From the NCBI GenBank assembly GCA_947444305.1, contig CANEZP010000008.1, positions 86,682 through 150,681 of the forward strand: a stretch of 64,000 nt of DNA. The letters run 5' to 3'. Shown piece after piece: positions 996-32,818 of this stretch (position 1 is its first letter; the number at the start of each line of letters is the position of its first letter). The DNA comes from Pseudobdellovibrionaceae bacterium (GTDB lineage: Bacteria; Bdellovibrionota; Bdellovibrionia; Bdellovibrionales; UBA1609). Below the pieces are notes generated by a model, which was not told the origin of the DNA, ran no database searches, and saw only the letters and a program-made list of their open reading frames with translations. A program made the position numbers and the translations under genes.

Positions 996-2002
996 TACGG
1001 CCCCTTCCTTAGAACGGTCGCGCCCATGAACACGGCGATGATGTACAAAATCACCGACCACTTAAGATAAGGCGGGAACAGCTCGGCGTAGCGGGTGAGC
1101 TGCGAAGTCTCGATGTTGGTTTTTTCTAAGCTATCGATCTCTTTAAAAATATTTTGGAGGGCATTGCCGGTGGTCGCGCGCCAATACTTTCCGCCCGTAT
1201 CGCCCGCGAATTTTCCGAGCAGTTGATCGTTCACCGAAGAATGGATCGGCCGGTAGCGTTTGACCTTGCGACCGAAGACGTCTTCAACGACCACGGGCAA
1301 CTGTGCATCCCCGTCGACGCCGACCCCGATCGAGTAGATCTTTATGCCGTAACCCTTCGCGATCTCGAGCGCCGTTTCCGGATCAATCGTGCCGGTGTTG
1401 TTTTCACCGTCGGTCATAAAAATTATGATACGGCTTTTCGCGGTCGAATCTTTGAGGCGGGCCACCCCGTTGGCCAGGCCCACGCCGATCGCCGTCCCCA
1501 TTTTGATGTTACGTGCCGGTTGGATGTCGGCGACGCTTCTTTGCAGCAATGGATAATCTAAGGTCATGGGCACGCGCGTGTAGCTTTCACCGGCAAAAAC
1601 CACGAGGCCTATACGATCCGAAACGCGTGCTTTGATGAAGTTCGATATCGTTTGTTTGGCCGACTCGAGCCGGTTCTCGGGCTCCATGTCTTCGATCAAC
1701 ATCGAATCCGAGATATCGAACACGATGACGATGTCGATGCCCTCCACGCTACGTTTGATTTTCGTGTCGGCTTTTTGCGGCCGCGCGAGCGCGAAGACCG
1801 CGAGGATTAACGCGAGCACTTTTATTATGACCGGCGCCCAGCTTAATTGCGCACGGTAGCCGCGATGAACCTTTAAAAAGCCTGCGAGATGCGAGAACTG
1901 CACGGTCGCCGTTCGTTTCCGGCGCGCGTACCAAATCCAAAACGCAACCGCGGCGAGCGGCAGCAAAAGCGCAAAGGCGTAGGGTGAGTACCACACCGTC
2001 AC
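995..2002 (-). CDS. batA: BatA-like vWA-domain membrane protein
   Basis: 335 aa. N-terminal TM segments, MIDAS motif IVIVFDISDSM, vWA core IIIFMTDGENNTG, C-terminal TM. 4-nt overlap with the upstream gene. Confidence 0.85.
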   Translation of the reverse strand: MTVWYSPYAFALLLPLAAVAFWIWYARRKRTATVQFSHLAGFLKVHRGYRAQLSWAPVIIKVLALILAVFALARPQKADTKIKRSVEGIDIVIVFDISDSMLIEDMEPENRLESAKQTISNFIKARVSDRIGLVVFAGESYTRVPMTLDYPLLQRSVADIQPARNIKMGTAIGVGLANGVARLKDSTAKSRIIIFMTDGENNTGTIDPETALEIAKGYGIKIYSIGVGVDGDAQLPVVVEDVFGRKVKRYRPIHSSVNDQLLGKFAGDTGGKYWRATTGNALQNIFKEIDSLEKTNIETSQLTRYAELFPPYLKWSVILYIIAVFMGATVLRKGP

Positions 2003-2901
2003 CGGCCGCCTCCCCGCTTCGCGTCTTTCGCGGCTTCAATACGCTCGGCCGCGTCCATGCTCATGCGGTGAATCTGTTCAACGTCCACCTGCTTCACTTC
2101 GGCGACGGATTTCATTCGCGCTAATTCCTGCAACGTGCGCTTCAAAGGATCGCCCGCGTTCATGTACACTTGCCGATGCCTTCGGCGTAAGTCGTCCATG
2201 ATCGCGCGGTCGGACCATTCCAGCGTCGGGATTTGAAATTCGCGTAAAATATAAAGGCGGAATTCACGGTTGAGATCGTCCGCCACGGTTTTGATCCCCT
2301 CGGGCGAAACGGTCACGTTTAAACGGCGGCGCAACTGCCGGGCGTCGCGGTAAAACTGGTGGAGCGGAGACAACGCCGTTTTGTGGCGCGCAAGCTCGGC
2401 CAACATGCGGGTGCGTTGCGAGTAGCGGCGCACAGTGCGGAAAATAGCCAGCGCGATCAATAAAACGACGACGCCGATCGCAACGACGATCCACATGGGA
2501 AAAGTCAGCCCCCACGGGCCATAAGGCGGGAACGGTTGCACCTGCTCGCCTTTTTTCAGAATACTTTTAATTTCCCAAGCAGGCTTCGCGACTTCAAAGC
2601 CGGCTTCACCTTGCGTGATGCGAACGTATTCCGGGGCGTGCGCGCCCGGTTTGTAACCCGTGACGGTCATGACCGCTTCGTTACCCTCGAGCTTTTCGGC
2701 TTTCAGAACGTAGAGGCTATAACTATCTTCCTTTTTCGGAAACTGAACGGTCAACGGACCCGCCGCGGCCCAAGTCACGGGAATGTCACCCCGGCACGAC
2801 AGACTAAATTTCGCGCCCACGGTCAGCGCGTTGAGTTCGGGCGGGTTTTGTTCCGCCGCTTTACCGAAGGTGCAATTCCAAATAGGTAGCGCTTCGCTCA
2901 T
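1999..2901 (-). CDS. Membrane protein of the Bat/MoxR operon, function unknown
   Basis: 300-aa ORF translationally coupled on both sides (4-nt overlaps with the DUF58 gene and batA). One central TM segment (WIVVAIGVVVLLIALAIF). Confidence 0.6.
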   Translation of the reverse strand: MSEALPIWNCTFGKAAEQNPPELNALTVGAKFSLSCRGDIPVTWAAAGPLTVQFPKKEDSYSLYVLKAEKLEGNEAVMTVTGYKPGAHAPEYVRITQGEAGFEVAKPAWEIKSILKKGEQVQPFPPYGPWGLTFPMWIVVAIGVVVLLIALAIFRTVRRYSQRTRMLAELARHKTALSPLHQFYRDARQLRRRLNVTVSPEGIKTVADDLNREFRLYILREFQIPTLEWSDRAIMDDLRRRHRQVYMNAGDPLKRTLQELARMKSVAEVKQVDVEQIHRMSMDAAERIEAAKDAKRGGGR

Positions 2902-14159: not shown

Positions 14160-14235
14160 TGGGGTGTCGGCAAGCTGGTAAGCCTTCAGATTTTGATTCT
14201 GACATTCGCAGGTTCGAGTCCTGCCACCCCATCCA
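14160..14235 (+). tRNA. tRNA-Gln (anticodon UUG), CCA encoded
   Basis: Manual cloverleaf. Acceptor tggggtg/cacccca, D arm ggc-aagctggtaa-gcc, anticodon arm tcaga-ttTTGat-tctga, variable loop cattc, T arm gcagg-ttcgagt-cctgc, discriminator t, then CCA. 76 nt. Resembles E. coli tRNA-Gln. Confidence 0.9.
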
Positions 14236-14243: not shown

Positions 14244-15335
14244 CTAACTCCCCGAAATCAAACGCAGTTTTTTTGACAGAATATGGGTTGAGGGTTTTTG
14301 CGGGTCAACGTTTGCCCCGAACATCACATCTGTTGCCCCATCCACTCTGAAAACATCACTCAAGGCACTCGAAACCTTCTGCTTCTGATGATCCGTTTCG
14401 CCCGTATATCTGCGGGTCACTCTTACGGAAGAGTGTCCGAGAAAACGAGAGATCGCATCGATATCACCAGTCGCTTCGTTTGCGAGTGTAGCCGATGTTC
14501 TTCTCATGAAATGAGTTCCGCTTACGTGCGTGAAGCCTAGCGATTTAAGCATCGTGTTGTAGTACGTCGCGATTGTTTTCCTATTTAACGGACTTCCATC
14601 GTGACGTGGCATCAACAGCGGGTTCTTTGGATCACTTACATCGATCAGGCCTTTAAGCTCCGGCACCAACTCCAAAGGAATCGGTAGATAACGAACACGC
14701 TTTGTCTTCGTGTGCTCTTTAATTTTGGGCTCCCATGTACGGAAGTCCCAATGAACACTTCTACGAATCGTTATCACGCGCTTGTTGAGGTCGACGCAGT
14801 CTTTATAGAGTGCGCACACCTCACCGATCCTAAGGGCAAAGAAGTACTGTAGGAGTGCTGTGTAGTAGTAGGTCCGATGTCGATTCTTAAGTCTTTGAAG
14901 AAACGCGATGGTTTCTTCAGAGTTTAAGTACTTCACTTCACCTTCTACGTTCGGCACCAGCGTGGTCATCTTCTTTAGCTTCTTAAAAGAAGGCATTGCA
15001 TAGCCAGCCCCTTCCGGAACCTCCTCTTTATAGAACTGAAGAATGACTCGTAACATCTGCCATTCCTTCATGAAGGATTTTCTTCTGAAGGATCTGGGAA
15101 AGTCATTCATCCAAAAATACGCGAGGCGGTTCAAAACCTGGCCATCGATCTTATTCACCGGATAATCGAGAAGGAAGTCCACCGCGGGAAGTAGATTTTC
15201 GTACTTCTGCTGCGTACTTTCCTCGATCAAAAGAAAATGGAACTTCTTCCACACCACGATGAGATCGCGAAACAAGAACCCGAGGGTCCTTTCTCCTTCG
15301 ACGTCCATCGTAAGGCTAGAGTCTTCAAGACTCAT
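14244..15335 (-). CDS. int: Tyrosine recombinase / phage-type integrase
   Basis: 363 aa. Catalytic signature ALRIGE (Arg), HFMRRT (HxxR), LGHSSVRVTRRY (His, Tyr). The stop lies 9 nt from the tRNA end. Confidence 0.9.
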   Translation of the reverse strand: MSLEDSSLTMDVEGERTLGFLFRDLIVVWKKFHFLLIEESTQQKYENLLPAVDFLLDYPVNKIDGQVLNRLAYFWMNDFPRSFRRKSFMKEWQMLRVILQFYKEEVPEGAGYAMPSFKKLKKMTTLVPNVEGEVKYLNSEETIAFLQRLKNRHRTYYYTALLQYFFALRIGEVCALYKDCVDLNKRVITIRRSVHWDFRTWEPKIKEHTKTKRVRYLPIPLELVPELKGLIDVSDPKNPLLMPRHDGSPLNRKTIATYYNTMLKSLGFTHVSGTHFMRRTSATLANEATGDIDAISRFLGHSSVRVTRRYTGETDHQKQKVSSALSDVFRVDGATDVMFGANVDPQKPSTHILSKKLRLISGS

Positions 15336-19071: not shown

Positions 19072-21477
19072 CTAAATTCTCGCGCGAGTGAGTTTTAATG
19101 CATTTGCGATCACCGACACCGAACTTAAGCTCATCGCAAGGCTCGCCATCATCGGATTCATAAGAATTCCAAACGCCGGATATAGTATTCCCGCCGCGAC
19201 GGGCACACCCAAAAGATTGTAGGCAAAAGCGAAGAATAAGTTCTGTCGAATATTCTTCATAGTTTGCTGACTAAGTTTATGTGCTCGAACTATTCCGGAC
19301 AGATCGCCTTTCAACAGTGTAATCGACGCACTTTCCATAGCCACGTCTGTTCCTGTACCCATGGCGATGCCCACATCAGCCTGAGCCAATGCCGGAGCAT
19401 CGTTGATTCCATCGCCGGCCATCGCGACTATTTTTCCGCTTTCGCGCAACTTTCGGACGACTTCATTCTTTTGCTCGGGTAATACCTCGGCCTCAAAGCG
19501 GTCAATGCCGACCTCTTTCGCAACAGCTGCGGCAGTAATTCTATTGTCGCCTGTCAACATGATGACTTCGATCTTCTTCGAGTGAAAGTAGGCGATGGCT
19601 TCCTTCGAAGTTTCTTTCACGGGATCTTTAACCGCGATGATTCCGGCGGGCTTGGAGTCAATTGCGACAAGCATCGCTCCGTGACCTGACTCCTGAAGGT
19701 TCTTGGCAATTCCAACCAGCTCGGAGGCATCTATCCGGTATTTCTCCATCAAACGTTTGTTTCCAATGACTACACGCCTACCGTCGACCGTTCCTTCCAC
19801 TCCCATTCCAGTTATTGATTGGAAATCCTTAACTTCCAATAGCGTTAAGCCTCTTTGAATTGCGCCTTCAACAATAGCTTCCGCGAGTGGGTGTTCGCTG
19901 GCTTTTTCAAGAACGGCAGCGAGTGCCAGAACTTCGTCTTCATTAGCCCCGTCTACTGTTTTCACAACGGCTAGCTTCGGCTTCCCCAGTGTGAGGGTTC
20001 CAGTCTTATCAACGATAAGCGTGGTGATTTTCTCCATTCCCTCTAAAGCTTCCGCACTTTTAATCAGTACTCCGTGCGTGGCCCCTTTCCCCGTCCCAAC
20101 CATAATGGACATCGGAGTCGCGAGACCGAGGGCACAAGGACACGCAATGATAAGAACTGAGACGGCATTAACAATCGCAAATGTGAACGCAGGATCGGGC
20201 CCGACCAGGAACCAAACAACCGCCGTAATGATGGCGATGAGAACGACTGCAGGCACAAAATACGCGGCCACTTGATCGGCAAGCTTTTGAATGGGTGCTC
20301 GGCTTCGCTGAGCTTGCGATACCATTTTGACGATTTGCGAGAGGAGCGTGTCCGAACCAACGCGCGTTGCTTCCATGACGAAAGAACCCGTTGCATTTAC
20401 GGTTGCACCAATGACCGAGTCTCCAGCACCCTTCTCGACTGGAATGGGTTCACCGCTAATCATGGACTCATCGACCGAGCTACGGCCCTCGATAACCTTT
20501 CCGTCGACGGGGACTTTTTCGCCGGGCTTAACTCTTAGCCGATCTCCGATCTTGATATGCTCGATCGGAATATCTTCTTCAGCTCCATTTGGACCGATAC
20601 GCTTTGCCGTTTTCGCCGCCAGCCCAAGCAATGCCCGAATGGCATTGCCCGTTTGGCTGCGCGCTCTGAGCTCCAAAACTTGACCAACTAATACCAGCGT
20701 AGTGATGACCGCGGCCGCTTCGAAATAAAGTGGAACCATTCCGCCGTGAGTCTTCAAATTTTCGGGAAAGATGACGGGAAAAAAGGTGGCCACGATACTG
20801 TAGACATAGGCCACACCGGTTCCGATGGAAATGAGGGTGAACATATTTAGGTTCCAGGTTTTGACCGATGCCCAACCACGTTCAAAGAATGGAAGCCCTC
20901 CCCAAAGAGCGACAGGAGTTGCCAGAGTAAATTGAATCAAGGCATTGATCCATCCAGGTATAAGATGTTGAACGGGCTGACCAGGAAGAATGTCGGACAT
21001 TGCCAGTAGCGTGAGCGGAATGGTTAGCACTGCACTGATCTTTAACCGTCTTGTGAAGTCTACCAATTCAGGATTGGCTTCGTCTGTGAGGCTAACTTCT
21101 TCAGGCTCCAGCGCCATTCCGCAGATAGGACAATTGCCAGGACCTTTTTGTCGAACTTCCGGGTGCATAGGGCAAGTGTAGATACGCTCGCTGTCTTCGG
21201 CCGAAACTATTACTTTCTCCGTAGACTTTGTTGAATAGCTCTCCGGATTAGCTTCGAATTTTGTTTTGCACTTGGGATTGCAGAAGTAATAAGTCTCATC
21301 TTTATATTTTGTGCTGCCAACTTTGGCGGTATTGGGATCAATGGTCATTCCGCAAACAGGATCGACCACTTGTGCCTGAGGCGGCTTTCTCTTCCCCTCT
21401 AGCGAGCAGCAGGAATGACCATCCGTGGGCACAGGCCCGTGATTGTGGGTATTGTGGTGACCGTGGTCGTGCTTCAT
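19072..21477 (-). CDS. copA: Copper-translocating P1B-type ATPase
   Basis: 801 aa. CPC ([13 protein letters not shown]), [15 protein letters not shown]. The N-terminus has a His-rich tract, a YHS/TRASH-like DPVCGM...YYFCNPKC, and CPMHPEV...CPICGM. Confidence 0.95.
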
Positions 21478-21679: not shown

Positions 21680-22084
21680 ATGACAATAGGTGAACTGGCG
21701 AAATCATCGGGTGTAAATGCGAAACTTATTCGTCATTACGAGTCTATTGGTGTCGTCCCGAAGCCCGGCCGCACAGATTCCGGATACCGGATCTACTCAA
21801 AGACCGACATTCAATTTCTGAAATTTATCAAAAGAGCCCGGGGGCTTGGATTTTCGATGAAAGAAATAAAGAAGCTTATCGGACTTTGGCGAAACAAATC
21901 CCGCGCGAGCAAAGATGTGAAAGCGCTTGCTCTAACTCACGTCAAAACACTGGATGCAAAAATATTAGAGATGCAAGAAATGGCGGATAGCCTTCGTTTG
22001 CTTGCGCGAAACTGTCACGGCGACGCAAGACCGGACTGCCCAATCTTAAGCAGCTTGGAAAACAACGGAGAAAAAAATGACTAA
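21680..22084 (+). CDS. cueR: MerR-family Cu(I)-responsive regulator (CueR-like)
   Basis: MTIGELAKSSGVNAKLIRHYESIGVVPKPGRTDSGYRIYS is a MerR HTH. C-terminal CHGDARPDC metal loop. ATG 21680 follows GGAGG. The longest ORF (21626) would cover the promoter. Confidence 0.85.
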   Translation: MTIGELAKSSGVNAKLIRHYESIGVVPKPGRTDSGYRIYSKTDIQFLKFIKRARGLGFSMKEIKKLIGLWRNKSRASKDVKALALTHVKTLDAKILEMQEMADSLRLLARNCHGDARPDCPILSSLENNGEKND

Positions 22085-24446
22085 TCAAATCGGAGCCTAT
22101 CACCAGAAGTGCGACATAAGATGTTGGACGAACGAGATATTCTTTCTCGTAACCTTAGCCGTTGCGATTCTCTTTTCATTCGGGGCTTTCGGAAAAACCG
22201 TTAAGTACGAGCTGAATATTGAGAATAAGCCGATGAACATGAGCGGCAAAAAGGATGTGAACTTTGCACTCACGGTAAATGGAGGAATTCCAGCCCCGAC
22301 GCTTGAATTTACCGAAGGTGATGATGCCGAAATTCTGGTGGTGAACAAGCTCAAGGAAGAAGAAGTTTCGATTCACTGGCACGGGATCTTACTCCCGCCG
22401 GAAGAAGACGGAGTGGCGTACGTGAATACGCCGCCGATACATGCCGGCACTTCTCGATTGTTCAAGTTCAAGATCCGTCAGAACGGTACCTTTTGGTATC
22501 ACTCGCACACCGCTGTCCAGGAACAAAAGGGTGTTTACGGCGCATTCATCATTCATCCAAAAAAGAAGTCCATATCTTACGATAAGGATGCGGTATTGGT
22601 CTTGAGTGATTGGTCTGATGAGAATGCCGATCAGATTATAAGAAATCTCCGCAAAGATGGAGATTTCTACCTCTACAAAAAAGATTCTGTACGCTCGTAC
22701 GTCGGCGCCGTCCGCGCAGGTGGCCTGAGATCGCACTTATCTAACGAGTGGAGCCGGATGGGCGGAATGGATTTATCCGATGTGGGCTACGATGCGTTTC
22801 TTATTAACGGCAAACGCAACTCGCAGCTCCTCACCGCTCATCTAGGTGAAAAGATTCGCTTAAGGGTTATCAATGCCGGTGCCTCAAGCTATTTCTATTT
22901 GGCAATGGGCGTACCCATGCAGGTCATCTCTGCTGACGGAGTAGATATCAAACCAGTTTCCGCAAAAGAAATTCTGATCGGAATGGCCGAAACTTACGAC
23001 GTGCTCTTTACGGTTCCTGAGCATAAAAACTATGAGATCCGTGCTACGACCCAAGACGTCACCGGATTTGCGTCGGCATGGATTGGAATGGGTGAAAAAG
23101 TACCTGCTCCCAATAAACCTCTTCCTGACATGTATGCAAGTATGGATCATAGCGGACACGGTGGTGCACATTCTGGGCACGGAGCCATGAGCCAGGGAGA
23201 TCACTCGGGTCACGGTGAAAAAGTTCCGAACACCGGTCATGCTCACCACACTGAAGCGTCAATGAAAGAGGATCACTCAAAGCATGGCGGCGGTAATCAT
23301 GCAAATCAACATGGTAGTGAGTCAGATCATTCCGCTCACGCCGCCCAAGTGAAACCTAAGCCGGCCACTACCAAATCCGAGGGTCCGATTGATTGGTCAA
23401 CCCAGTCTGATGCACAACTAAGACAAAATGCAGCGTCGCGGGATCTAAGCGGCGGCGATAAGCCCATCGAAACCCTGACTGTTGATAATCTATCGGCACT
23501 TCAGCCGACTACTTTGCCGAAGGATGTAAAGGTTCACGATGTGAAACTCGTGCTTGGCGGTGATATGCAACGTTACGTCTGGCACATTAACGGCAAGACA
23601 ATTGAACAAGACCGCCTATTGATGATTAACAAGGGTGAGATTGTTCGGTTTACATTTCAAAACGACACGATGATGCATCACCCGATGCATCTTCATGGAC
23701 ACTTCTTCCGCGTAATCAACGAGAACGGCGAAAGATCCCCGCTAAAGCATTCGGTTGATGTGCCCCCGCATAAATCTCGCACAATTGAGTTCTTTTCGAA
23801 CGAGCCGGGACAATGGATGCTTCACTGCCATAATCTTTATCATATGAAAACCGGCATGGCCCGGGTCGTACGTTACAATGATTTTAAACTCACACCCGAG
23901 ATGGCCAAGCACGACGCACACGATCCGCATCTTCACGAACACCTCTATACACACACACAGCTCGAAGCCGCGAGTAATCATGCCAAAGCGGGTTTCCATC
24001 TCATGCGCACGTGGGACGAAATCGAACTCGAAATTGAAAGCGCCAACCTCGACGGGAAGAACTTTTCGTTCGGAGAGGACTGGGAGACCGAGGGTGATTT
24101 GGTCTACCGTAGATGGTTTTCAAACTTCTTTAATTTGTTCGGCGGAGGATCACTTTACGATGAAAAGGGTTTCGGGACGATCGGGATTGGCTACATACTT
24201 CCTCTGTTGATCGAAACGCAGTTTTCCGTGAATCATGAAGGGCGCTTCAGATTCGATGTCGAAAAGCGATTCCAATGGACCAAAAACGTGTTTTCGGACG
24301 TCGATTTTACGTGGAGACCGGATTGGGATGGCGAGCGTGACACCGAGTTTGAAGTCAGCCTGATGTACGGACCTTCTTGGAATTGGTCGGCGGGCCTTAT
24401 GTTTACGGAAAAGAGCGCCGGTATTGGCGCAAAGATTCAGTTTTAA
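22077..24446 (+). CDS. Multicopper oxidase (CopA/PcoA-like) with His/Met-rich insert and a C-terminal CopB-like beta-barrel-type extension
   Basis: 789 aa. Cu sites HWHG, WYHSH, HPMHLHGH, HCHNLYHMKTGM. His-rich tract DHSGHGGAHSGHG.... About 190 aa follow the T1 site and end in GIGAKIQF. Confidence 0.85.
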   Translation: MTNQIGAYHQKCDIRCWTNEIFFLVTLAVAILFSFGAFGKTVKYELNIENKPMNMSGKKDVNFALTVNGGIPAPTLEFTEGDDAEILVVNKLKEEEVSIHWHGILLPPEEDGVAYVNTPPIHAGTSRLFKFKIRQNGTFWYHSHTAVQEQKGVYGAFIIHPKKKSISYDKDAVLVLSDWSDENADQIIRNLRKDGDFYLYKKDSVRSYVGAVRAGGLRSHLSNEWSRMGGMDLSDVGYDAFLINGKRNSQLLTAHLGEKIRLRVINAGASSYFYLAMGVPMQVISADGVDIKPVSAKEILIGMAETYDVLFTVPEHKNYEIRATTQDVTGFASAWIGMGEKVPAPNKPLPDMYASMDHSGHGGAHSGHGAMSQGDHSGHGEKVPNTGHAHHTEASMKEDHSKHGGGNHANQHGSESDHSAHAAQVKPKPATTKSEGPIDWSTQSDAQLRQNAASRDLSGGDKPIETLTVDNLSALQPTTLPKDVKVHDVKLVLGGDMQRYVWHINGKTIEQDRLLMINKGEIVRFTFQNDTMMHHPMHLHGHFFRVINENGERSPLKHSVDVPPHKSRTIEFFSNEPGQWMLHCHNLYHMKTGMARVVRYNDFKLTPEMAKHDAHDPHLHEHLYTHTQLEAASNHAKAGFHLMRTWDEIELEIESANLDGKNFSFGEDWETEGDLVYRRWFSNFFNLFGGGSLYDEKGFGTIGIGYILPLLIETQFSVNHEGRFRFDVEKRFQWTKNVFSDVDFTWRPDWDGERDTEFEVSLMYGPSWNWSAGLMFTEKSAGIGAKIQF

Positions 24447-25687: not shown

Positions 25688-26692
25688 CTAAACATTCGAA
25701 ACCAAACGCAATTTTGAGACGGGTTTTTTCGGTGCGGGCTTTTGCGGGACAGAATCGCCCCCAAACATTTTATCCGCTCCCCCATCCACTTTAAAAACAT
25801 CGCCAAGCGCCTTTGAAATCTTCTGCTTCTGATGATCAGTTTCGCCCGTATATCTCCGAGTCACCCTCACTGAAGTGTGACCTAAGAATCTCGATACAGC
25901 GTCGATGTCGCCAGTCGCATCGTTTGCTAGAGTCGCGGCCGTTCTTCTCATGAAATGCGTTCCGCTAACGTGATTCAAACCCAGCGAACCCAAAACCATG
26001 TTGTAGTAAGTGGCAATCGTCTTCCTATTTACGGGAAGACCCTTCTTACTCACGAACAACGGATTGCTCGGATCACTTTGCTTAATCACATCTTGAAGTA
26101 CCGGAACCAACTGCTCAGGGATCGGCAAACGCCGTACGCGCTTTGTCTTCGTGTACTCTTTCACCGACGGCAGCCAGGTCCTTAGATCCCAGTGAACACA
26201 ACGACGAATCGTTATGACCTTCTTTTCAAGATCTATGCAGTCTTTGTAGAGGCCGCAGACTTCACCGATCCTCAGGGCAAAAAAGTACTGCAGAAGAGCG
26301 ACTACGAAATAAGTGTCATTACGTTTTTTAAGCTCTTGCAGGAACTTCGTCGCATCTTCTGAATCGAGGTACTTCACGGAACCATCGGAACTTTCAATGA
26401 GCACGGTCCTTTTGCGAGGCTTCTTAAACGAAGGCACATTATAGTTAACGCCCTCCTCAACTTCTTCTCTATAAAATCTTAAGATGACCCTTAGCAGTTG
26501 CCATTCTTTCTCGAACGATTTTCTCCGAAAGCTTCGAGGAAAATCGTTGAGCCAGAATTGCGCTAGCGAATTCAAAACCTTCCCGTCGATATCCTTAGCC
26601 GGGTAATCAGCTAAAAAATCGAGAGCCGGAAGAAGTTTCTCGTACGTTTTTACCGAACATTCGGTTATATTATCAGTCAGCATTTGTTTCAT
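25688..26692 (-). CDS. int: Tyrosine recombinase / integrase, paralog of 14244-15335
   Basis: 334 aa. ALRIGE, HFMRRT, LGHTSVRVTRRY. The C-terminal 111 aa are 81/111 identical to integrase 1 by manual alignment. Confidence 0.9.
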   Translation of the reverse strand: MKQMLTDNITECSVKTYEKLLPALDFLADYPAKDIDGKVLNSLAQFWLNDFPRSFRRKSFEKEWQLLRVILRFYREEVEEGVNYNVPSFKKPRKRTVLIESSDGSVKYLDSEDATKFLQELKKRNDTYFVVALLQYFFALRIGEVCGLYKDCIDLEKKVITIRRCVHWDLRTWLPSVKEYTKTKRVRRLPIPEQLVPVLQDVIKQSDPSNPLFVSKKGLPVNRKTIATYYNMVLGSLGLNHVSGTHFMRRTAATLANDATGDIDAVSRFLGHTSVRVTRRYTGETDHQKQKISKALGDVFKVDGGADKMFGGDSVPQKPAPKKPVSKLRLVSNV

Positions 26693-27156: not shown

Positions 27157-27705
27157 ATGAGAAAACCGCTGAAGCCGAAATCTGAAATCGTCACAGATTT
27201 GAGTCGAGTTTTTCGCGCTCATGGCTTTGATGGAGCCACGTTGACGAAGCTGGTTGAAGAAACTGGACTTGAGCGAGCGAGTCTATATCACCACTTTCCA
27301 AACGGAAAAGCAGATATGGCAGAGGCGGTTTTACTCCAAGCACTATTGGATTTGGAAGCCGACGTGATTAATTTTCTTAAAGAAGAGGGGGATGCAAAAG
27401 CGAAGCTCAAAAGAATGTTTAACGCCGTCGAGGCGTTTTACAACAATGGCAACGATGTTTGTTTCATCACGATTTTCTCGCTTGGCCACCAGAGCAAGAA
27501 AATTGATGAGATGATGAGTGGAGCGATTCGTACTTGGCTTAAGTATCTGGAGAAGACGTTGGCAGATTCAAAAGTTGATGACCCCAAAAAATCAGCTCAA
27601 CAACTTCTATCAACAATTCAAGGAGGTCTCATTCTGGCCCGTACATTAAATGATCCTTCAGTTTTTAGAAACTCCTTAAAGCCTTTACGCGTAGCTTGGC
27701 TGTAG
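27157..27705 (+). CDS. TetR-family transcriptional regulator
   Basis: 182 aa. FRAHGFDGATLTKLVEETGLERASLYHHFPNGKADM is a TetR HTH. Confidence 0.85.
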   Translation: MRKPLKPKSEIVTDLSRVFRAHGFDGATLTKLVEETGLERASLYHHFPNGKADMAEAVLLQALLDLEADVINFLKEEGDAKAKLKRMFNAVEAFYNNGNDVCFITIFSLGHQSKKIDEMMSGAIRTWLKYLEKTLADSKVDDPKKSAQQLLSTIQGGLILARTLNDPSVFRNSLKPLRVAWL

Positions 27706-27892: not shown

Positions 27893-28603
27893 TTAGCCGC
27901 CTACTTCCTGTTCTCCATCAGTCGAAACGCCCTGGAACTTCATTTGAATTTTTGCGAGCTCTCTTTCTGCTTCGGCCCGCTTCTCAATTTCTGCTTTAAG
28001 AGCTTCCTCTTCACGCTTCATCGCCGCTCTCTCGGCCGAAACACTCCCGTGACTGCATTTCGCAATTAGGCTGATCTGGCGATATGAAATGCCACTTTTT
28101 AATAGTTTCCTAATTAAATCTGAATCGCGCATTTTCTTTCGACCAATCAGCCTCCCCTTCGCCCGAGCATTTGCGAGGCCGATCTTTACCCGGTCTGCGA
28201 TTAAATCCCGTTCGAGCTGAGCAATGCTTGCAAGAATACTGAAGATCGCAACACCTATGGCGGAGTTCGTATCGATTCTTTCTGATATTGAAATGAACTG
28301 AACTCCTTTTGACTTAAACTTCGACAATGCGCTCAGTAAATGGGTGGTGCTTCTTGCAAACCGACTGAAGCTATAGACGACGATGGTAGAGATCTCTCCG
28401 GCTTCAACCGCCGCCATCATCCGATCCAGAGCCGGACGACTGGACTTAGTTCCACTAATGCCGCCGTCCGAATAAAATTCGACATTGGTCATATGATTCT
28501 GCTCACACCAAGTTCTCAATACTCTGACTTGTGATTCTAAGCCGGTCTCTTGATCGGCTGTACTGGTTCTTGAATAGCAAGCGATCCGCTTGTCATCTGA
28601 CAT
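27893..28603 (-). CDS. Serine recombinase (resolvase/invertase family)
   Basis: 236 aa. IACYSRTSTADQ (catalytic Ser), resolvase core VYSFSRFARS, C-terminal HTH (ISYRQISLIAKCSHGSV) and a charged coiled tail. Confidence 0.9.
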   Translation of the reverse strand: MSDDKRIACYSRTSTADQETGLESQVRVLRTWCEQNHMTNVEFYSDGGISGTKSSRPALDRMMAAVEAGEISTIVVYSFSRFARSTTHLLSALSKFKSKGVQFISISERIDTNSAIGVAIFSILASIAQLERDLIADRVKIGLANARAKGRLIGRKKMRDSDLIRKLLKSGISYRQISLIAKCSHGSVSAERAAMKREEEALKAEIEKRAEAERELAKIQMKFQGVSTDGEQEVGG

Positions 28604-28692
28604 TCGTTCTCCGTTTTGTTGTTGCTAGTGGGTAATGTATTTTGAAAAAAGAAAAAACGTTGGCTTGGGTTTGGCTAAACCATTTCAGCTGT

Positions 28693-28716
28693 CCCGCACT
28701 TTTTCGAAAGTGCGGG
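28693..28716. repeat. Perfect 10-bp-stem palindrome upstream of the serine recombinase gene
   Basis: cccgcacttt-ttcg-aaagtgcggg, 90 nt upstream of the recombinase start. Function unknown (candidate recombination or regulatory site). Confidence 0.5.
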
Positions 28717-28845
28717 ATTCTGTGGGATTTGACCTGTCACTTAGCTGCATAAGCAGGCACTTCTTGTCCGACTGAGTCGCGAGCAACTAATTGAAATTAT
28801 TAAAACTTGAGTAAATTCAAAAACTTCAAACTGGATAAAGTGGCC

Positions 28846-28866
28846 CCTGCCACCCCATCCAATTTC
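28846..28866 (+). repeat. att-type direct repeat of the tRNA-Gln 3' end (right end of island B)
   Basis: cctgccaccccatccaatttc, 21/21 identical to 14220-14240. Confidence 0.7.
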
Positions 28867-29020
28867 ATTTCCTTTAGTCGTTTACACTTCCCTACAATTC
28901 TTAGATGGTCCGCATGTTGACCACGCATTCGCGTGGATGGCGTGACAAGCGTTCGAGCCGACCGCATCCACGGACGGACAATCTCCGCTGGGAACATGAG
29001 GACTTGCGATTACCCGTCAG

Positions 29021-29033
29021 CCCCATCCAATTT
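29021..29033 (+). repeat. Partial att core copy
   Basis: ccccatccaattt, identical to 14227-14239 of the tRNA end. Only 13 nt. Confidence 0.45.
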
Positions 29034-29127
29034 TATGGATTATGTAAGGAATTTTTAAAATTGAAAGTCGAAAGGAGAATGTAGCGGTACGAGTATAACC
29101 TAAACAAGTGTTTTACCCGGTCCCAAA

Positions 29128-29877
29128 CTACATTGAGGTGCCTTTATTGTGGACCAAGATCCCTTCCACGATAAAGTTGTTCGGTGGTAATTCCAGGCCG
29201 ATGTGAAAGACAGTCCCAGTTCCGGCGCTTAAATCGAACGCTCCTCTAAAAACTAACGATGCCTCACATCCATCAACTTTAATAAGGCGATCCGTGGGAG
29301 CCATGTCACCGATGGCTACATAGTTTTTAGCATCAGCTGAATAGAATGGATGATCAGATGTAGTTTCGATGGCTTTACCCGTCGGAGACAAATTGCACAG
29401 ACGGCCAAATATTCTATTTTGAATGATCTGGATGGACTTCACTCGATTTATAATCTGGCGCTTACGATCAATATCCCAGGAAATAATCTCGTCCCCATTG
29501 CCGATGCTCGCGATCGCCACGTAGCCCTTGGGAGTCAGAACCCGCATTGCAGACGTAAAGCAACCGTACTTCGAAACCCCTCGGAGTCTTGTTTCCTCGG
29601 ACGCTAATCGCCGAATTTCATCGTGTCCAAATTTGGTCCCGGCTGATTTCTCCATCGATAGTGTTTCAATTGCAAATTGGCGGCGATCAGGCAGTACTAA
29701 TCCGTTGATTTCAATGTCCTCAACTATAGATGCAATTTTCTCTATTCTAGAAGAGTCCCTGGTGCTCACAGGAGGGTTTGCTGCACCAACCTTAGATGCT
29801 GTTCCTAAGAACAATAGTGACACGAAGATCAAAATAAGAATTTGCAGATACGATTTCATTATGGCCCGACGATGCAA
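29128..29877 (-). CDS. Secreted protein with C-terminal Hint (Hedgehog/intein-like, BIL-type) autoprocessing domain
   Basis: 249 aa. Signal peptide, about 75-aa N-terminal segment, then G-C-F (C106) opening a Hint domain: CFTSAMRVLTPKGYVAIASIGNGDEIISWD, TTSDHPFYS (TxxH block), ...GILVHN near the C-terminus. Confidence 0.75.
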   Translation of the reverse strand: MHRRAIMKSYLQILILIFVSLLFLGTASKVGAANPPVSTRDSSRIEKIASIVEDIEINGLVLPDRRQFAIETLSMEKSAGTKFGHDEIRRLASEETRLRGVSKYGCFTSAMRVLTPKGYVAIASIGNGDEIISWDIDRKRQIINRVKSIQIIQNRIFGRLCNLSPTGKAIETTSDHPFYSADAKNYVAIGDMAPTDRLIKVDGCEASLVFRGAFDLSAGTGTVFHIGLELPPNNFIVEGILVHNKGTSM

Positions 29878-30040
29878 TAATCATGGGGCGCTGTAAATTG
29901 CGGTGTTGAAGCATGCAATTTCAGTTGCGTACAATCGATCAACGACGATGAAGATTTTTCCTGAACAAAATCAGATAATGTAGGTCCCGCTTATTCGGAA
30001 ATGCCGCGGACCTAGATCAATTGCTTAGTACGTGCCCCAC

Positions 30041-30056
30041 CACCCCATCCAATTTC
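30041..30056 (+). repeat. att-type repeat remnant
   Basis: caccccatccaatttc, 16/16 identical to 14225-14240. Confidence 0.55.
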
Positions 30057-30231
30057 GCCCTTCCGCCCGAAATTGGACGAAAATAGAAAATCGAAAGTAG
30101 TAAGACGGGATCGAAGGCGGAACCGTCGTCGCAGGAAATTCCTCTATTTTCTATTGTCGTTTTCGGCGGCAGGACTCGGAGTGAGAACGCGGCCGCGAGG
30201 ACCTGCGTCTACACGAAGCCCCATCCATTGT

Positions 30232-30765
30232 TTAAAGATTTTCGATCGCCGCCTCGAGGGCGCTCGTTTGATCTTTGTATCGACCGCTGGCGACCAATTC
30301 CTCAAGCTTTTCTATTAGAGTTCGGGTGAGCTTAAAAGCCTTTAGATGCTTCTTCTCGTTAAGCGGCTTGGTTCGCTTGTCTTTGAGCTGCGTGTACGCC
30401 CACACTTTCAGCTTTTCAAATGCCACCCCTTCAAACTCAGGACCGGCGTGTTCGCCGGCGCGTAGAGCTTTAATGACGACACGTAGATTTTCTGGCATCT
30501 GCTCAAAGTCGCGAAAACTCTTTTGATAATGAAGTACGGCGGTCGGAAGCACTTCGATAATTCGAGGCTCAACATTCAGGCCGGCCCAAATAGCATCTTT
30601 AATCTCAAGCTTCATACCCGTTTTTCCAGCAATGGGTAGATTTGTATTAAGAAGGCCTTTGCCTTTTAGAAAGGCCATTGTTTTTTTAAAGCGTGGATCT
30701 TTTCGATGCTGAGTATTTTGCTCCGCTTTTGCTTTAATCTTATTTAGAAATTCTGCATTCTTCAT
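30232..30765 (-). CDS. Hypothetical protein with C-terminal ribbon-helix-helix-like segment
   Basis: 177 aa. The C-terminal KAFKLTRTLIEKLEELVASGRYKDQTSALEAAIENL has a beta-strand/helix/helix RHH-like pattern. The start lies 2 nt after the upstream gene's stop. Confidence 0.45.
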   Translation of the reverse strand: MKNAEFLNKIKAKAEQNTQHRKDPRFKKTMAFLKGKGLLNTNLPIAGKTGMKLEIKDAIWAGLNVEPRIIEVLPTAVLHYQKSFRDFEQMPENLRVVIKALRAGEHAGPEFEGVAFEKLKVWAYTQLKDKRTKPLNEKKHLKAFKLTRTLIEKLEELVASGRYKDQTSALEAAIENL

Positions 30766-30767
30766 AA

Positions 30768-31283
30768 TTATTCCCCAGCGAAGTAATTTAAATCGCCGCC
30801 GTTTTCTTCAATACGGCGCATGAGATCCGGAAACTTCTCGCTCGCAATTGCGTCTACGATCAGAACCTTATTCTTTTCTTTTGCCTTCACTGCTTTGCTA
30901 ACTAATGTAGATTCCGGATCTAGCAACTTCACACGAACGAACCTAGAATCAAAAAGCGTATCAAAAGTACTTCCCGGTGGAATCCAGACGAGCTCACTGT
31001 CGTCATCAAGCCGAAGATCGTACTTAGGAAGAATCTCTTTTTTCAAAACGCTGATCACGAACGCTTGATTCTCTTCAACGACTGCGTCGAGATCGTTCGT
31101 CATGGCAAGAGTAAGGATACTTGCTGCAAACTCGTTTGCGAGTAGCGAAGCTTGTCCCATAATTCGAACTTCGATTGGACGAAGTTTGAGGCTTCCGAGC
31201 TTTTCACGTTCCTCATTTTCGGATCTAATCCGCTCGTTTAATTCCTCAAATATGTTTCGAAGCGTCTCCCTCATCACATCCAT
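30768..31283 (-). CDS. Nucleotidyltransferase-fold-like protein (DUF6036/AbiEii-like pattern, tentative)
   Basis: 171 aa. N-terminal helix, then IEVRIMGQASLL...TNDLDAVV (G-x-[AS]...DxD-like), and later VRVKLLDPESTLVSKAVKAKEKNKVLI. Assignment by eye only. Confidence 0.45.
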   Translation of the reverse strand: MDVMRETLRNIFEELNERIRSENEEREKLGSLKLRPIEVRIMGQASLLANEFAASILTLAMTNDLDAVVEENQAFVISVLKKEILPKYDLRLDDDSELVWIPPGSTFDTLFDSRFVRVKLLDPESTLVSKAVKAKEKNKVLIVDAIASEKFPDLMRRIEENGGDLNYFAGE

Positions 31284-31290
31284 AATATAA

Positions 31291-31300
31291 CGTATATACG
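31291..31300. promoter_or_regulatory. Perfect 10-bp palindrome just upstream of the NTase-like gene (candidate operator)
   Basis: cgtatatacg lies 8 nt upstream of the ATG (31283). Two AGATCT palindromes occur at 31314-31319 and 31346-31351. Confidence 0.3.
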
Positions 31301-31512
31301 GTATTTTATCAATAGATCTTGAATACTTATGTTACTTTACAATGAGATCTTTAAAGCTAATAAATTCCAGAGCTTACGAGGAGGTGTACGTTAGGACTGA
31401 ATCCAACCGGGCCTATTCTGATGCACACCTATACCTTTCGGCACTCCAGCTAAGGAGCAACTATCTACGACGAAAAGAAGCATAGGAATGTTGACTACGC
31501 ATCTGAGCAAGT

Positions 31513-31905
31513 TCAACTGAACATTTTTGGCAGCGGGCGTCCGCCGAATTCTTTTTTCGAAAGCTTTCGAGGCTCTTTCTTCCAACCGAACTTTTCTAAA
31601 TCTATAAGTCCGTTTTCATCGACTTCAACGCCTTCGGCTTCAAGGCGCGATTTCTGCCTTTTGTAGTCAACCGAACCTTTTTGAAATTTAATGGAACCGT
31701 CGGACCTGATAACTCGGTACGCGGGGATTTCGGACGAATCTTTAAAGCGATTCACCATAATACTAATGGGACTGGATTGTTGCGCCCGTTCGCAAAGCCT
31801 GGCGATTTGGCCATAGGTTGCTACTTTGCCTTCTGGAATAGCGAGGACCCATTTCATAACGGACTCCCGCATCGTTCCGCTTGGAGCCTTAACAGGAATT
31901 TTCAT
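31513..31905 (-). CDS. Alkyltransferase-like (ATL) protein, MGMT DNA-binding domain without catalytic Cys
   Basis: 130 aa. IPEGKVATYGQIARL ... IPAYRVIRSDGSI. The PCHRV active-site motif is replaced by PAYRV. Confidence 0.75.
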   Translation of the reverse strand: MKIPVKAPSGTMRESVMKWVLAIPEGKVATYGQIARLCERAQQSSPISIMVNRFKDSSEIPAYRVIRSDGSIKFQKGSVDYKRQKSRLEAEGVEVDENGLIDLEKFGWKKEPRKLSKKEFGGRPLPKMFS

Positions 31906-32131
31906 TGATAGCTCCCCTCACTTTTAGAATTGACGCCGTATATTTATCGTTCTGCAGCGGTCATCAAGCCGATCTTCTCTTGGATTAACGAAAGAGCCAA
32001 AAGTTAATTCATTGGGATGTCAGCACCGGACGAGCCTAAAGTAACTGAGAAAGTTCACTTTGCTTTCTAATACGGCTCGGTAGAATAGTGATTACTAAAA
32101 CTTTTGATCTTTTAATAACCCCAGGGTCACC

Positions 32132-32818
32132 TTGATCAAGTCAAAATCCGTCAAAATCAAAACAGAATCAGGCTTCGTTTCAGGAATTCTTGAAATTCCG
32201 AACAAGACCACTGCAGGCCTAACGCTCGCGCACGGAGCGGGTGCGGGAATGCACCACGCATTTCTGCGCGACCTTTCGACCGCGTTGGTGGCGCGGGGCT
32301 TCGCGGTTCTGCGCTTTCAGTTTCCCTACATGGAGGCCGGGAAGAAGAGGCCGGATTCTCCCAAGGTTGCGTGCGCCACCGTTGCCGCCGCCGTGGCCGC
32401 GTTACGCAAGCGCGTCCCGGACCTGCCACTCTTCGGGGCGGGCAAATCATTTGGCTCACGCATGACCACGACTGCGGCCAGCGAAGGACTATTAGAGGAT
32501 TTGAGCGGCATCATTTGTTTCGGGTTTCCCCTTCATCCCGCCGGCCAACCCGGGATCAAGCGGGCCGAGCACCTTAAGCAAGTCGCGGTAAAAATGCTTT
32601 TCTTGCAAGGCACACGTGATGATCTCGCCGATCTTAAGCTTATGCGCGGCGTTTGCAAAAAACGACCGCGCGCTAAACTTCATATCGTCGAAGGTGCAGA
32701 CCATGGTTTCGCTGTACTAAAGCGATCGGGCCGAACTCCCGCGGACGTGTTGGAAGAGCTGGCGAACGAAGCGGCTGGTTTTGCCGCTCGTACCGGAACC
32801 CGTAAAACTCGAAAATAA
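32132..32818 (+). CDS. Alpha/beta-fold hydrolase (dienelactone-hydrolase/KANL3-like)
   Basis: 228 aa. Nucleophile elbow GKSFGSRM, later LFLQGTRDD and GADHGF (Asp/His region). Confidence 0.75.

Follow-up and report, generated by a model that had tools for sequence, protein, structure and literature searches.

A probably autoregulated nucleotidyltransferase–ribbon-helix-helix gene pair of Bdellovibrionota as a candidate toxin-antitoxin operon

What kind of system is formed by two small, closely spaced genes at the tail of a genomic island in a Pseudobdellovibrionaceae bacterium, and does one of their products harm the cell that carries them? The question is posed by a 64,000-nucleotide stretch of contig CANEZP010000008.1 (assembly GCA_947444305.1, positions 86,682 to 150,681 of the forward strand), which was analysed as a whole and is here called the window. 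The original prediction, made from the letters alone, had singled out two open reading frames (ORFs) of 171 and 177 amino acids, separated by 2 nt, as a candidate toxin-antitoxin (TA) or defence cassette; both ORFs are present, on the minus strand, and all the peptide strings that it quoted are found in them. The upstream gene, A (30768-31283, minus strand, 171 aa when counted from the first ATG), encodes a putative DUF6036-related nucleotidyltransferase (NTase) of the Pol-beta type, which is the predicted toxin. The downstream gene, B (30232-30765, minus strand, 177 aa), encodes a helical N-terminal domain followed by a predicted ribbon-helix-helix (RHH). The pair is very probably an autoregulated, mobile NTase-RHH operon. 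That it works as a TA module with A as the toxin is the modestly favoured reading, and a role in abortive infection is possible. No known defence system was found by PADLOC, and an Rfam scan of 28500-32500 found no RNA family.

The constancy of the pair is the first point to consider. A has 43 close relatives and a wider family of 244 representatives at E≤1e-3 among 1.84 billion proteins, while a profile search gave 342 relatives of B. None of these relatives bears a name, and those listed carried no precomputed Pfam domain, apart from a DUF6036 entry later seen for P0281, a divergent relative of A that is discussed below. In a survey of one genome per species, which found 34 loci, an A homologue is followed by a B homologue on the same strand in all 34, with a junction of typically -4 to +10 nt, and the same arrangement recurs in further metagenome contigs. 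A co-occurrence survey had been proposed as a check of the original prediction, and the homologues do occur as conserved pairs. In the window, the two genes are separated by 2 nt (TAA-TT-ATG), with a GGGGA stretch 5′ of the ATG of B. The hosts are nearly all metagenome-assembled genomes (MAGs) of Bdellovibrionota (Bdellovibrionales, Pseudobdellovibrionaceae, Bacteriovoracaceae and Oligoflexia), the exceptions among the 34 loci being one Acidobacteriota MAG and one genome labelled Streptomyces. Duplicate assemblies aside, no gene within 4 kb of the pair is common to different loci. The DNA of the window resembles that of its closest relatives from 31329-31333, immediately 5′ of the -35 box, as far as the stop codon of B, and so the promoter, A and B together form a conserved unit of about 1.1 kb. 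Two small, co-directional, coupled genes, kept as a pair with a patchy and mobile distribution, correspond to the generic layout of a TA module.

The surroundings of the pair differ from one locus to another and abound in mobile elements and TA genes, as would be expected from the TA or mobile setting that had been proposed for it. The neighbours include an IS66 transposase, a small terminase, and ParA and HigBA; homologues of the integrases and the resolvase of the window, which served as queries, were not found beside the module in other loci. In one locus (L003, 6094-6682), a Phd/YefM antitoxin gene and a gene for a 103-aa partner lie directly 3′ of the A-B pair, forming a small TA cluster. 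The sole match on a viral contig (L043, IMG/VR UViG_3300025173_000081, region 1-2338) places A-B at the very end of a predicted provirus of 36 kb, where a tyrosine-integrase-like gene (1382-2338, minus strand) adjoins the pair at the contig end.

What does the first gene encode? Among 86 diverse members of the A family, G43 and Q44 are invariant, and T62, D64, D66, D93, W100, P102, S129, K130, A134, K137 and N138 are conserved in at least 90%. These residues make up the motifs G43-Q44, T62-x-D64-x-D66, D93 and S129-K130...K137-N138, and the family signature can be written as GQ…TxDxD…D. In the AlphaFold2 (AF2) model of A (pLDDT 94, pTM 0.87), a helix of residues 3-29 is followed by β1 (37-42), α2 (43-56), β2 (64-70) and α3 (74-87), and then by a short strand before D93, two more strands and a helical tail. 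The G-Q pair is found at the β1/α2 turn, the DxD on β2 and D93 on the next strand, which is the arrangement of Pol-beta NTases; the catalytic signature hG[GS]-x(9-13)-[DE]h[DE] with its third carboxylate can be recognised, with Q44 replacing G/S. When the model was compared with the PDB by Foldseek, seven of the eight best matches were terminal uridylyltransferases (TUTases) or CD-NTases, all of them weak (E=0.77-2.9, TM 0.15-0.28). Sequence searches of the PDB with the A1, A2 and A3 profiles and with P0281 returned spurious matches only (fibrinogen, chemokine, glycoside hydrolase and gasdermin).

The link to a named family comes through divergent relatives. PF19502 (DUF6036, described as a "nucleotidyltransferase of unknown function") is matched by 5 of the 86 members at E≤1. 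The relative P0281 reaches 31.9 bits (E=1.4e-7, residues 26-138), above the gathering threshold of 23.6 bits, and P0301 reaches 16.4 bits. P0281 also matches the A profile over its full length (E=7e-19); its gene overlaps by 4 nt with that of a following 162-aa protein, which aligns to the B profile (hhalign probability 89.6%, E=1.9e-6), and its promoter carries GTATTTAC, the motif that is described below. Since P0281 is tied in this way to DUF6036, to the A profile, to a B-like partner and to the motif, A can be placed, with support at the family level and by transitive membership, as a divergent DUF6036-type NTase. In the clustering, the bridging members form a small clade in which K-F-K-R-x-K-D replaces K-A-x-E-K-N, and ten members of the most divergent A clades gave no DUF6036 match. 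The NTase-like layout of DUF6036/AbiEii type that was first suggested for A is in this sense borne out for the family. In the library searched, no paper mentions DUF6036.

The second gene provides the regulatory half of the proposed operon. The AF2 model of B (pLDDT 85) consists of six helices within residues 1-123, a disordered linker (132-142) and two terminal helices (148-159 and 166-176). The C-terminal segment, approximately residues 143-177 (30232-30339, minus strand, stop codon included), comprises an FKLT strand and these two helices and is predicted to bind the operator; R145 and L146, of a conserved F-[KR]-L strand, precede the helices. The family scans were based here on 84 relatives of B. 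RHH_1 is matched by 15 of them (best E=1.9e-5), and further matches of RHH type are spread over RHH_10 (five relatives), DUF6364 (four), NikA-like (three) and BrnA (two), with RHH_3 and RHH_4 also represented. These matches among its relatives support the C-terminal RHH of B at the family level, where the RHH-like tail of the original prediction holds.

Where would such a protein bind? The best match to a sigma-70-like promoter in 29900-31700 is formed by a -35-like TTGATA (31307-31312, minus strand), a 17-nt spacer and a -10-like TATATT (31284-31289, minus strand), with 10 of 12 consensus positions matched in the promoter scan. The -10 box abuts the first ATG of A, which would leave a very short leader or none; the homologues of A begin at the position of M4, and an identical protein from NCBI, P0001, has 168 aa. 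For these reasons translation of A probably begins from the second ATG (31274, M4), which gives a protein of 168 aa and a transcript that is probably leaderless or nearly so. The perfect 10-bp palindrome CGTATATACG that had been noticed upstream of A is present (31291-31300), although it ends 7 nt from the first ATG and not 8. It is the core of an 18-bp dyad, ATACCGTATATACGTTAT in the minus-strand reading, with one mismatched pair (31287-31304, not assigned to a strand). Given the placement of TTGATA and TATATT, the palindrome fills the spacer and touches the -10 box, which the dyad overlaps.

Taken alone, the palindrome is no more than chance would provide: the window contains 90 perfect 10-bp palindromes, and the CGTATATACG word, with at most one mismatch, is seen in 66 of 100 shuffles. 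It gains significance through its conservation across loci. A GTA-NN-TA[CT] motif, mostly GTATTTAC, is found within about 100 nt 5′ of A in 31 non-redundant loci, at a distance from the start that is mostly 7-56 nt (7-56 nt in intact loci). The dyad consensus across them is ATAnnGTAwwTACnnTAT. It is important to note that the search pattern covered the core only: the ATA and TAT flanks were not selected for, yet they are conserved and dyad-symmetric, ATA being kept at -5 to -3 in 25-29 of the 31 loci and TAT at +10 to +12 in 23-28. In some loci, the two positions of the next inner pair change together (T/A, C/G, A/T, G/C), and some have a second, weaker copy of the motif 11 or 21 nt upstream. 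Over 345 kb of loci, the 8-mer has a frequency of only 0.11 per kb, most of its occurrences being the promoter copies. In distant relatives, the motif overlaps the -35 box (TTTACA, 17 nt, GATAAT), and in the subgroup of the window it lies in the spacer. Conservation of the motif while its position in the promoter shifts favours a repressor site over a promoter element. The conserved dyad is accordingly put forward as the candidate operator of B, and the operator role once proposed for the palindrome draws its support from this conservation within the promoters of 31 loci.

If the operon is a TA module, which partner is the toxin? The loci in which one gene has decayed provide some indication. 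A is disrupted with B at full length in 7 of the 34 loci, whereas the opposite case, a truncated B with an intact A, is found in a single one (L030). In L006 A has an in-frame stop and in L028 a C-terminal frameshift; L033 lacks its first ~46 residues, L034, L035 and L036 have lost the catalytic core through internal deletions, and L037 retains residues 108-166 only. The differing end-points of the deletions indicate independent events. All seven loci keep an intact operator where the upstream sequence is present, and they may be orphan antitoxin or repressor loci. Since A is lost and B is kept, A is read as the harmful partner: preferential decay of A with a lingering antitoxin points to A as the toxin. 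Under this TA reading, a compact, horizontally mobile bicistronic operon of ~1.1 kb would act as follows. On the model of AbiEii and MenT, A would stop growth by attaching a nucleotide to an essential RNA, for instance tRNA. B, which would be translationally coupled to A from its start 2 nt downstream, would neutralise A through its helical N-domain, and its RHH would dimerise on the dyad inside the promoter and repress the operon.

The same decay pattern has to be weighed in a different explanation, that of an accessory operon without a toxin. A would then modify a small molecule (an antibiotic, as ANT, KNTase or Lnu do, or a nucleotide signal) or a protein, B would be a substrate-binding or regulatory partner that also acts as RHH repressor, and the operon would spread by benefit and not by addiction. 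Repeated, independent loss of A with retention of B is unexpected for a beneficial enzyme and a mere helper. An NTase with an autoregulator, the mobility and the low GC content fit this explanation equally well, as does the lack of a PADLOC defence system, and the alternative has been raised for mobile MNT-containing pairs (Makarova et al., 2009; PMC2701414). Moreover, a folded N-domain of B with invariant E66, R68, E71, D129 and R131 resembles a functional domain more than a disordered antitoxin tail. On the other side, strict translational coupling, the small sizes of the proteins and the presence of TA pairs and mobile-element debris nearby are typical of TA modules, and no resistance-enzyme family was matched in Pfam or NCBIfam. 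An accessory operon is on balance considered unlikely.

The N-terminal domain of B (approximately residues 1-131; 30373-30765, minus strand) is the predicted toxin-neutralising part and raises a question of its own. It contains the invariant residues K36, L39, W60, E66, R68, E71, V72, P74, W122, D129 and R131. No match to this domain was obtained in Pfam, in the PDB (by sequence or by fold) or in BFVD, and Foldseek with the model of B gave nothing below E=1; it had been called unrecognised from the start, and profile, PDB sequence and structure searches leave it so. Two identities were considered for B and rejected. An AF0941-like match (E=0.018) is reproduced by only one of the 84 relatives and was treated as noise; a literature search on AF0941 found nothing useful. 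A HEPN identity was discarded in view of the lack of an Rx4-6H motif, of any HEPN profile match and of a fold match in the PDB or BFVD. The B family has no conserved histidine, and H79 of the window protein is an arginine in the family consensus.

These results bear on the possibility that the roles are reversed, with A as an MntA-like antitoxin that nucleotidylates a toxic B, or that B enzymatically reverses or pre-empts the modification made by A, in a manner similar to type VII or type IV systems. The NTase-first order matches that of MNT-HEPN (MntA/HepT) modules, HEPN-RHH fusions are known (PMC2701414), and both the invariant polar residues of the N-domain and the weak AF0941-like match could be accommodated. 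A toxic B is disfavoured by the results just given for HEPN, for H79 and for AF0941, and the decay pattern, in which A is lost and B is kept, is the opposite of what it predicts. None of these results speaks against B as a reversing enzyme. Reversed or enzymatic roles are regarded as improbable. A bolder version of the TA reading would see in the pair a new TA class, in which a DUF6036 NTase toxin is countered not by simple sequestration but by the enzymatic action of an RHH-fused, folded domain, which would reverse or pre-empt nucleotidylation or modify the toxin. This would give DUF6036 its first function, add a new fold and constitute a defence or addiction system specific to Bdellovibrionota at integration hot-spots; a low probability is given to it.

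Several observations weigh against the reading of the pair as an NTase toxin with an RHH antitoxin. Protein A of the window has no match in Pfam (none at E≤1), NCBIfam, PADLOC or PHROGs, its Foldseek matches are non-significant (E≥0.77), its motif I is G-Q instead of G-[GS], and the spacing from G-Q to DxD is 19 residues (16 in one clade), longer than the canonical 9-13. Protein B of the window gave nothing in Pfam, NCBIfam, PADLOC or PHROGs beyond the AF0941-like match, the RHH remaining below threshold. Both fold assignments are thus transitive, family-level links. If B were an antitoxin that simply sequesters its toxin, its N-domain would be exceptional in being so well folded and conserved, and the invariant charged residues of that domain are also compatible with an enzyme. 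The asymmetry of 7 against 1 in the decayed loci is only marginally significant (one-sided binomial ~0.035), from counts that are small and come from MAGs, in which assembly errors occur. No homologue turned up by tblastn among plasmids, where A, B and P0281 served as queries, or among phage genomes, where A did.

The position of the pair in the window is informative about its mobility. Behind a tRNA-Gln gene (14160-14235), islands are arranged in tandem, with copies of the tRNA 3′-end core CCCCATCCAWTT at the boundaries of each; seven such copies are present against 0.56 expected (at 14227, 25671, 25780, 28853, 29021, 30043 and 30219). The last copy of this attachment (att) core, CCCCATCCATTG (30219-30230, plus strand), lies outside the operon and abuts the stop codon of B; a distal copy to the right of the module was looked for and none was found. 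The GC content of the A-B module is 43.6%, compared with ~54% in the flanking chromosome. The module does stand, as first described, in an AT-rich island tail next to att remnants.

The islands themselves carry varied cargo. Two paralogous tyrosine integrases (14244-15335 and 25688-26692) each lie beside an att copy, and two copies of a 300-nt stretch (14289-14588 and 25733-26032) are 75% identical. The first island holds, besides its integrase, genes for copper resistance: a heavy-metal P-type ATPase for copper with HMBD/YHS domains (19072-21477, minus strand) and a three-domain multicopper oxidase (22077-24446, plus strand). The second contains its own integrase, a TetR-family regulator (27157-27705) and a serine resolvase (27893-28603). 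Between the att copies at 29021 and 30043 there is an isolated, fragment-like Hint/pretoxin-HINT protein of 249 aa (29128-29877). On the other side of the module, in the same low-GC stretch, a 130-aa protein (31513-31905) has an MGMT DNA-binding domain (PF01035) with PAYRV at the usual active-site PCHR, and we take it to be an alkyltransferase-like (ATL) protein.

Flanking repeats are found at some of the other loci. In L001 (5651-5774 and 7072-7195; also in L005), an insert of 1421 bp holds only A-B and is flanked by a 124-nt direct repeat, of 81% identity, of the 3′ end of ftsK; its distal copy still encodes a 51-aa FtsK-gamma fragment, and the whole looks like an integrase-less, att-flanked islet. 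L008 (5793-5852 and 7210-7268) has a 61-nt flanking repeat of 77% identity at a similar spacing of 1.42 kb, and in L026 (4912-4939 and 7043-7070) a 28-nt direct repeat brackets A-B. In L025 (5778-5824 and 7012-7059), an upstream 48-nt copy of the 3′ end of B, 98% identical, is followed by a perfect hairpin, and this may be the trace of an earlier module that was replaced or lay in tandem. The 3′ end of B faces that of a tRNA-Met gene in L028 and L034.

Could the pair, then, be the machinery of its own movement? It would in that case be the core of a minimal, integrase-less insertion cassette that targets the 3′ ends of genes and tRNAs, the NTase and the RHH protein acting in its mobility. The islet at ftsK, the repeats of L008, L025 and L026, the stop codon of B abutting the tRNA-Gln att core in the window and the tRNA-Met ends faced by B agree with this. 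Nonetheless, Pol-beta NTases and RHH proteins are not known as recombinases, most loci have no flanking repeats, and the orientation relative to the target varies between loci. A simpler view is that the repeats are att scars left by integrative elements that have decayed until only an addictive TA pair survives, or that A-B is cargo beside an integrase, as in L043. The probability assigned to a self-moving cassette is very small.

If the TA reading is correct, the operon would supply the first functional context for DUF6036, an uncharacterised nucleotidyltransferase family, together with a new antitoxin or partner domain for which Pfam, PDB and BFVD offer no recognisable relative. The AbiE/MenAT group would gain an NTase toxin system restricted to one lineage and equipped with a ready-made operator-repressor pair, in the predatory Bdellovibrionota, whose TA and defence content is poorly explored. 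The cassette marks decayed integration sites and may also help to map the turnover of mobile elements in these genomes. It is one predicted TA family among many, and its wider impact hangs on the toxin target and the mode of neutralisation.

How does the operon relate to known systems? For PF19502 (DUF6036), the nearest named family of A, neither a function nor a partner has been described. Its threshold is passed, over residues 26-138, by a divergent member of the A family that shares the GQ/DxD core, the partner and the operator motif, whereas A of the window and most other members go undetected. With MNT-HEPN modules (MntA/HepT, type VII), the operon shares the NTase-first order, a tightly coupled, all-helical partner of similar size and a mobile, patchy distribution, and the existence of HEPN-RHH fusions (PMC2701414) adds to the likeness. 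It differs from them in that B has no Rx4-6H motif and no HEPN profile or fold match, and in that the decay pattern suggests that the NTase, and not the helical partner, is harmful.

Closer parallels are found with AbiE (AbiEi/AbiEii, type IV) and MenAT, which are likewise bicistronic and mobile, with inverted repeats in the promoter, autoregulation being predicted here from the dyad. The likeness extends to a small NTase of the Pol-beta superfamily with G-x…DxD and a C-terminal basic motif, the toxin role of A being a prediction. This basic motif of A (SKAxKAxEKN, or K-F-K-R-x-K-D in divergent members) resembles motifs III (KLxAaxxR) and IV (+DxxD) of AbiEii, in which the spacing to DxD, of 15 residues, is likewise longer than canonical (PMC3985639). 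The differences from AbiE are also clear. A is related to DUF6036, and the AbiEii toxin belongs to DUF1814 (COG2253/COG4849); DUF1814/AbiEii was matched neither by A of the window in Pfam, nor among the top families of the 86 members, nor by PADLOC. Motif I of A is G-Q, placed 19 residues before DxD. In AbiE the antitoxin is encoded upstream, while here the NTase comes first and B is downstream in all loci; and the AbiE antitoxin combines an N-terminal winged helix-turn-helix (HTH) with a COG5340 C-domain, in contrast with the novel N-domain and C-terminal RHH of B. As regards gene order, the operon is comparable to the "reverse order" type II systems HicAB, HigBA and MqsRA, with an upstream toxin and, especially in HicB, a two-domain downstream antitoxin composed of a neutralising N-domain and a C-terminal RHH or HTH acting on a promoter palindrome, provided that the roles predicted for A and B are right. 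The toxin in those systems is an RNase and not an NTase, and neither Pfam nor Foldseek gave a match for the N-domain of B, which is unrelated to the HicB fold. The operon is therefore distinct from both groups in their defining features, and it resembles AbiE/MenAT in its NTase and its inverted-repeat promoter, and HicAB in its gene order and in the layout of its putative antitoxin.

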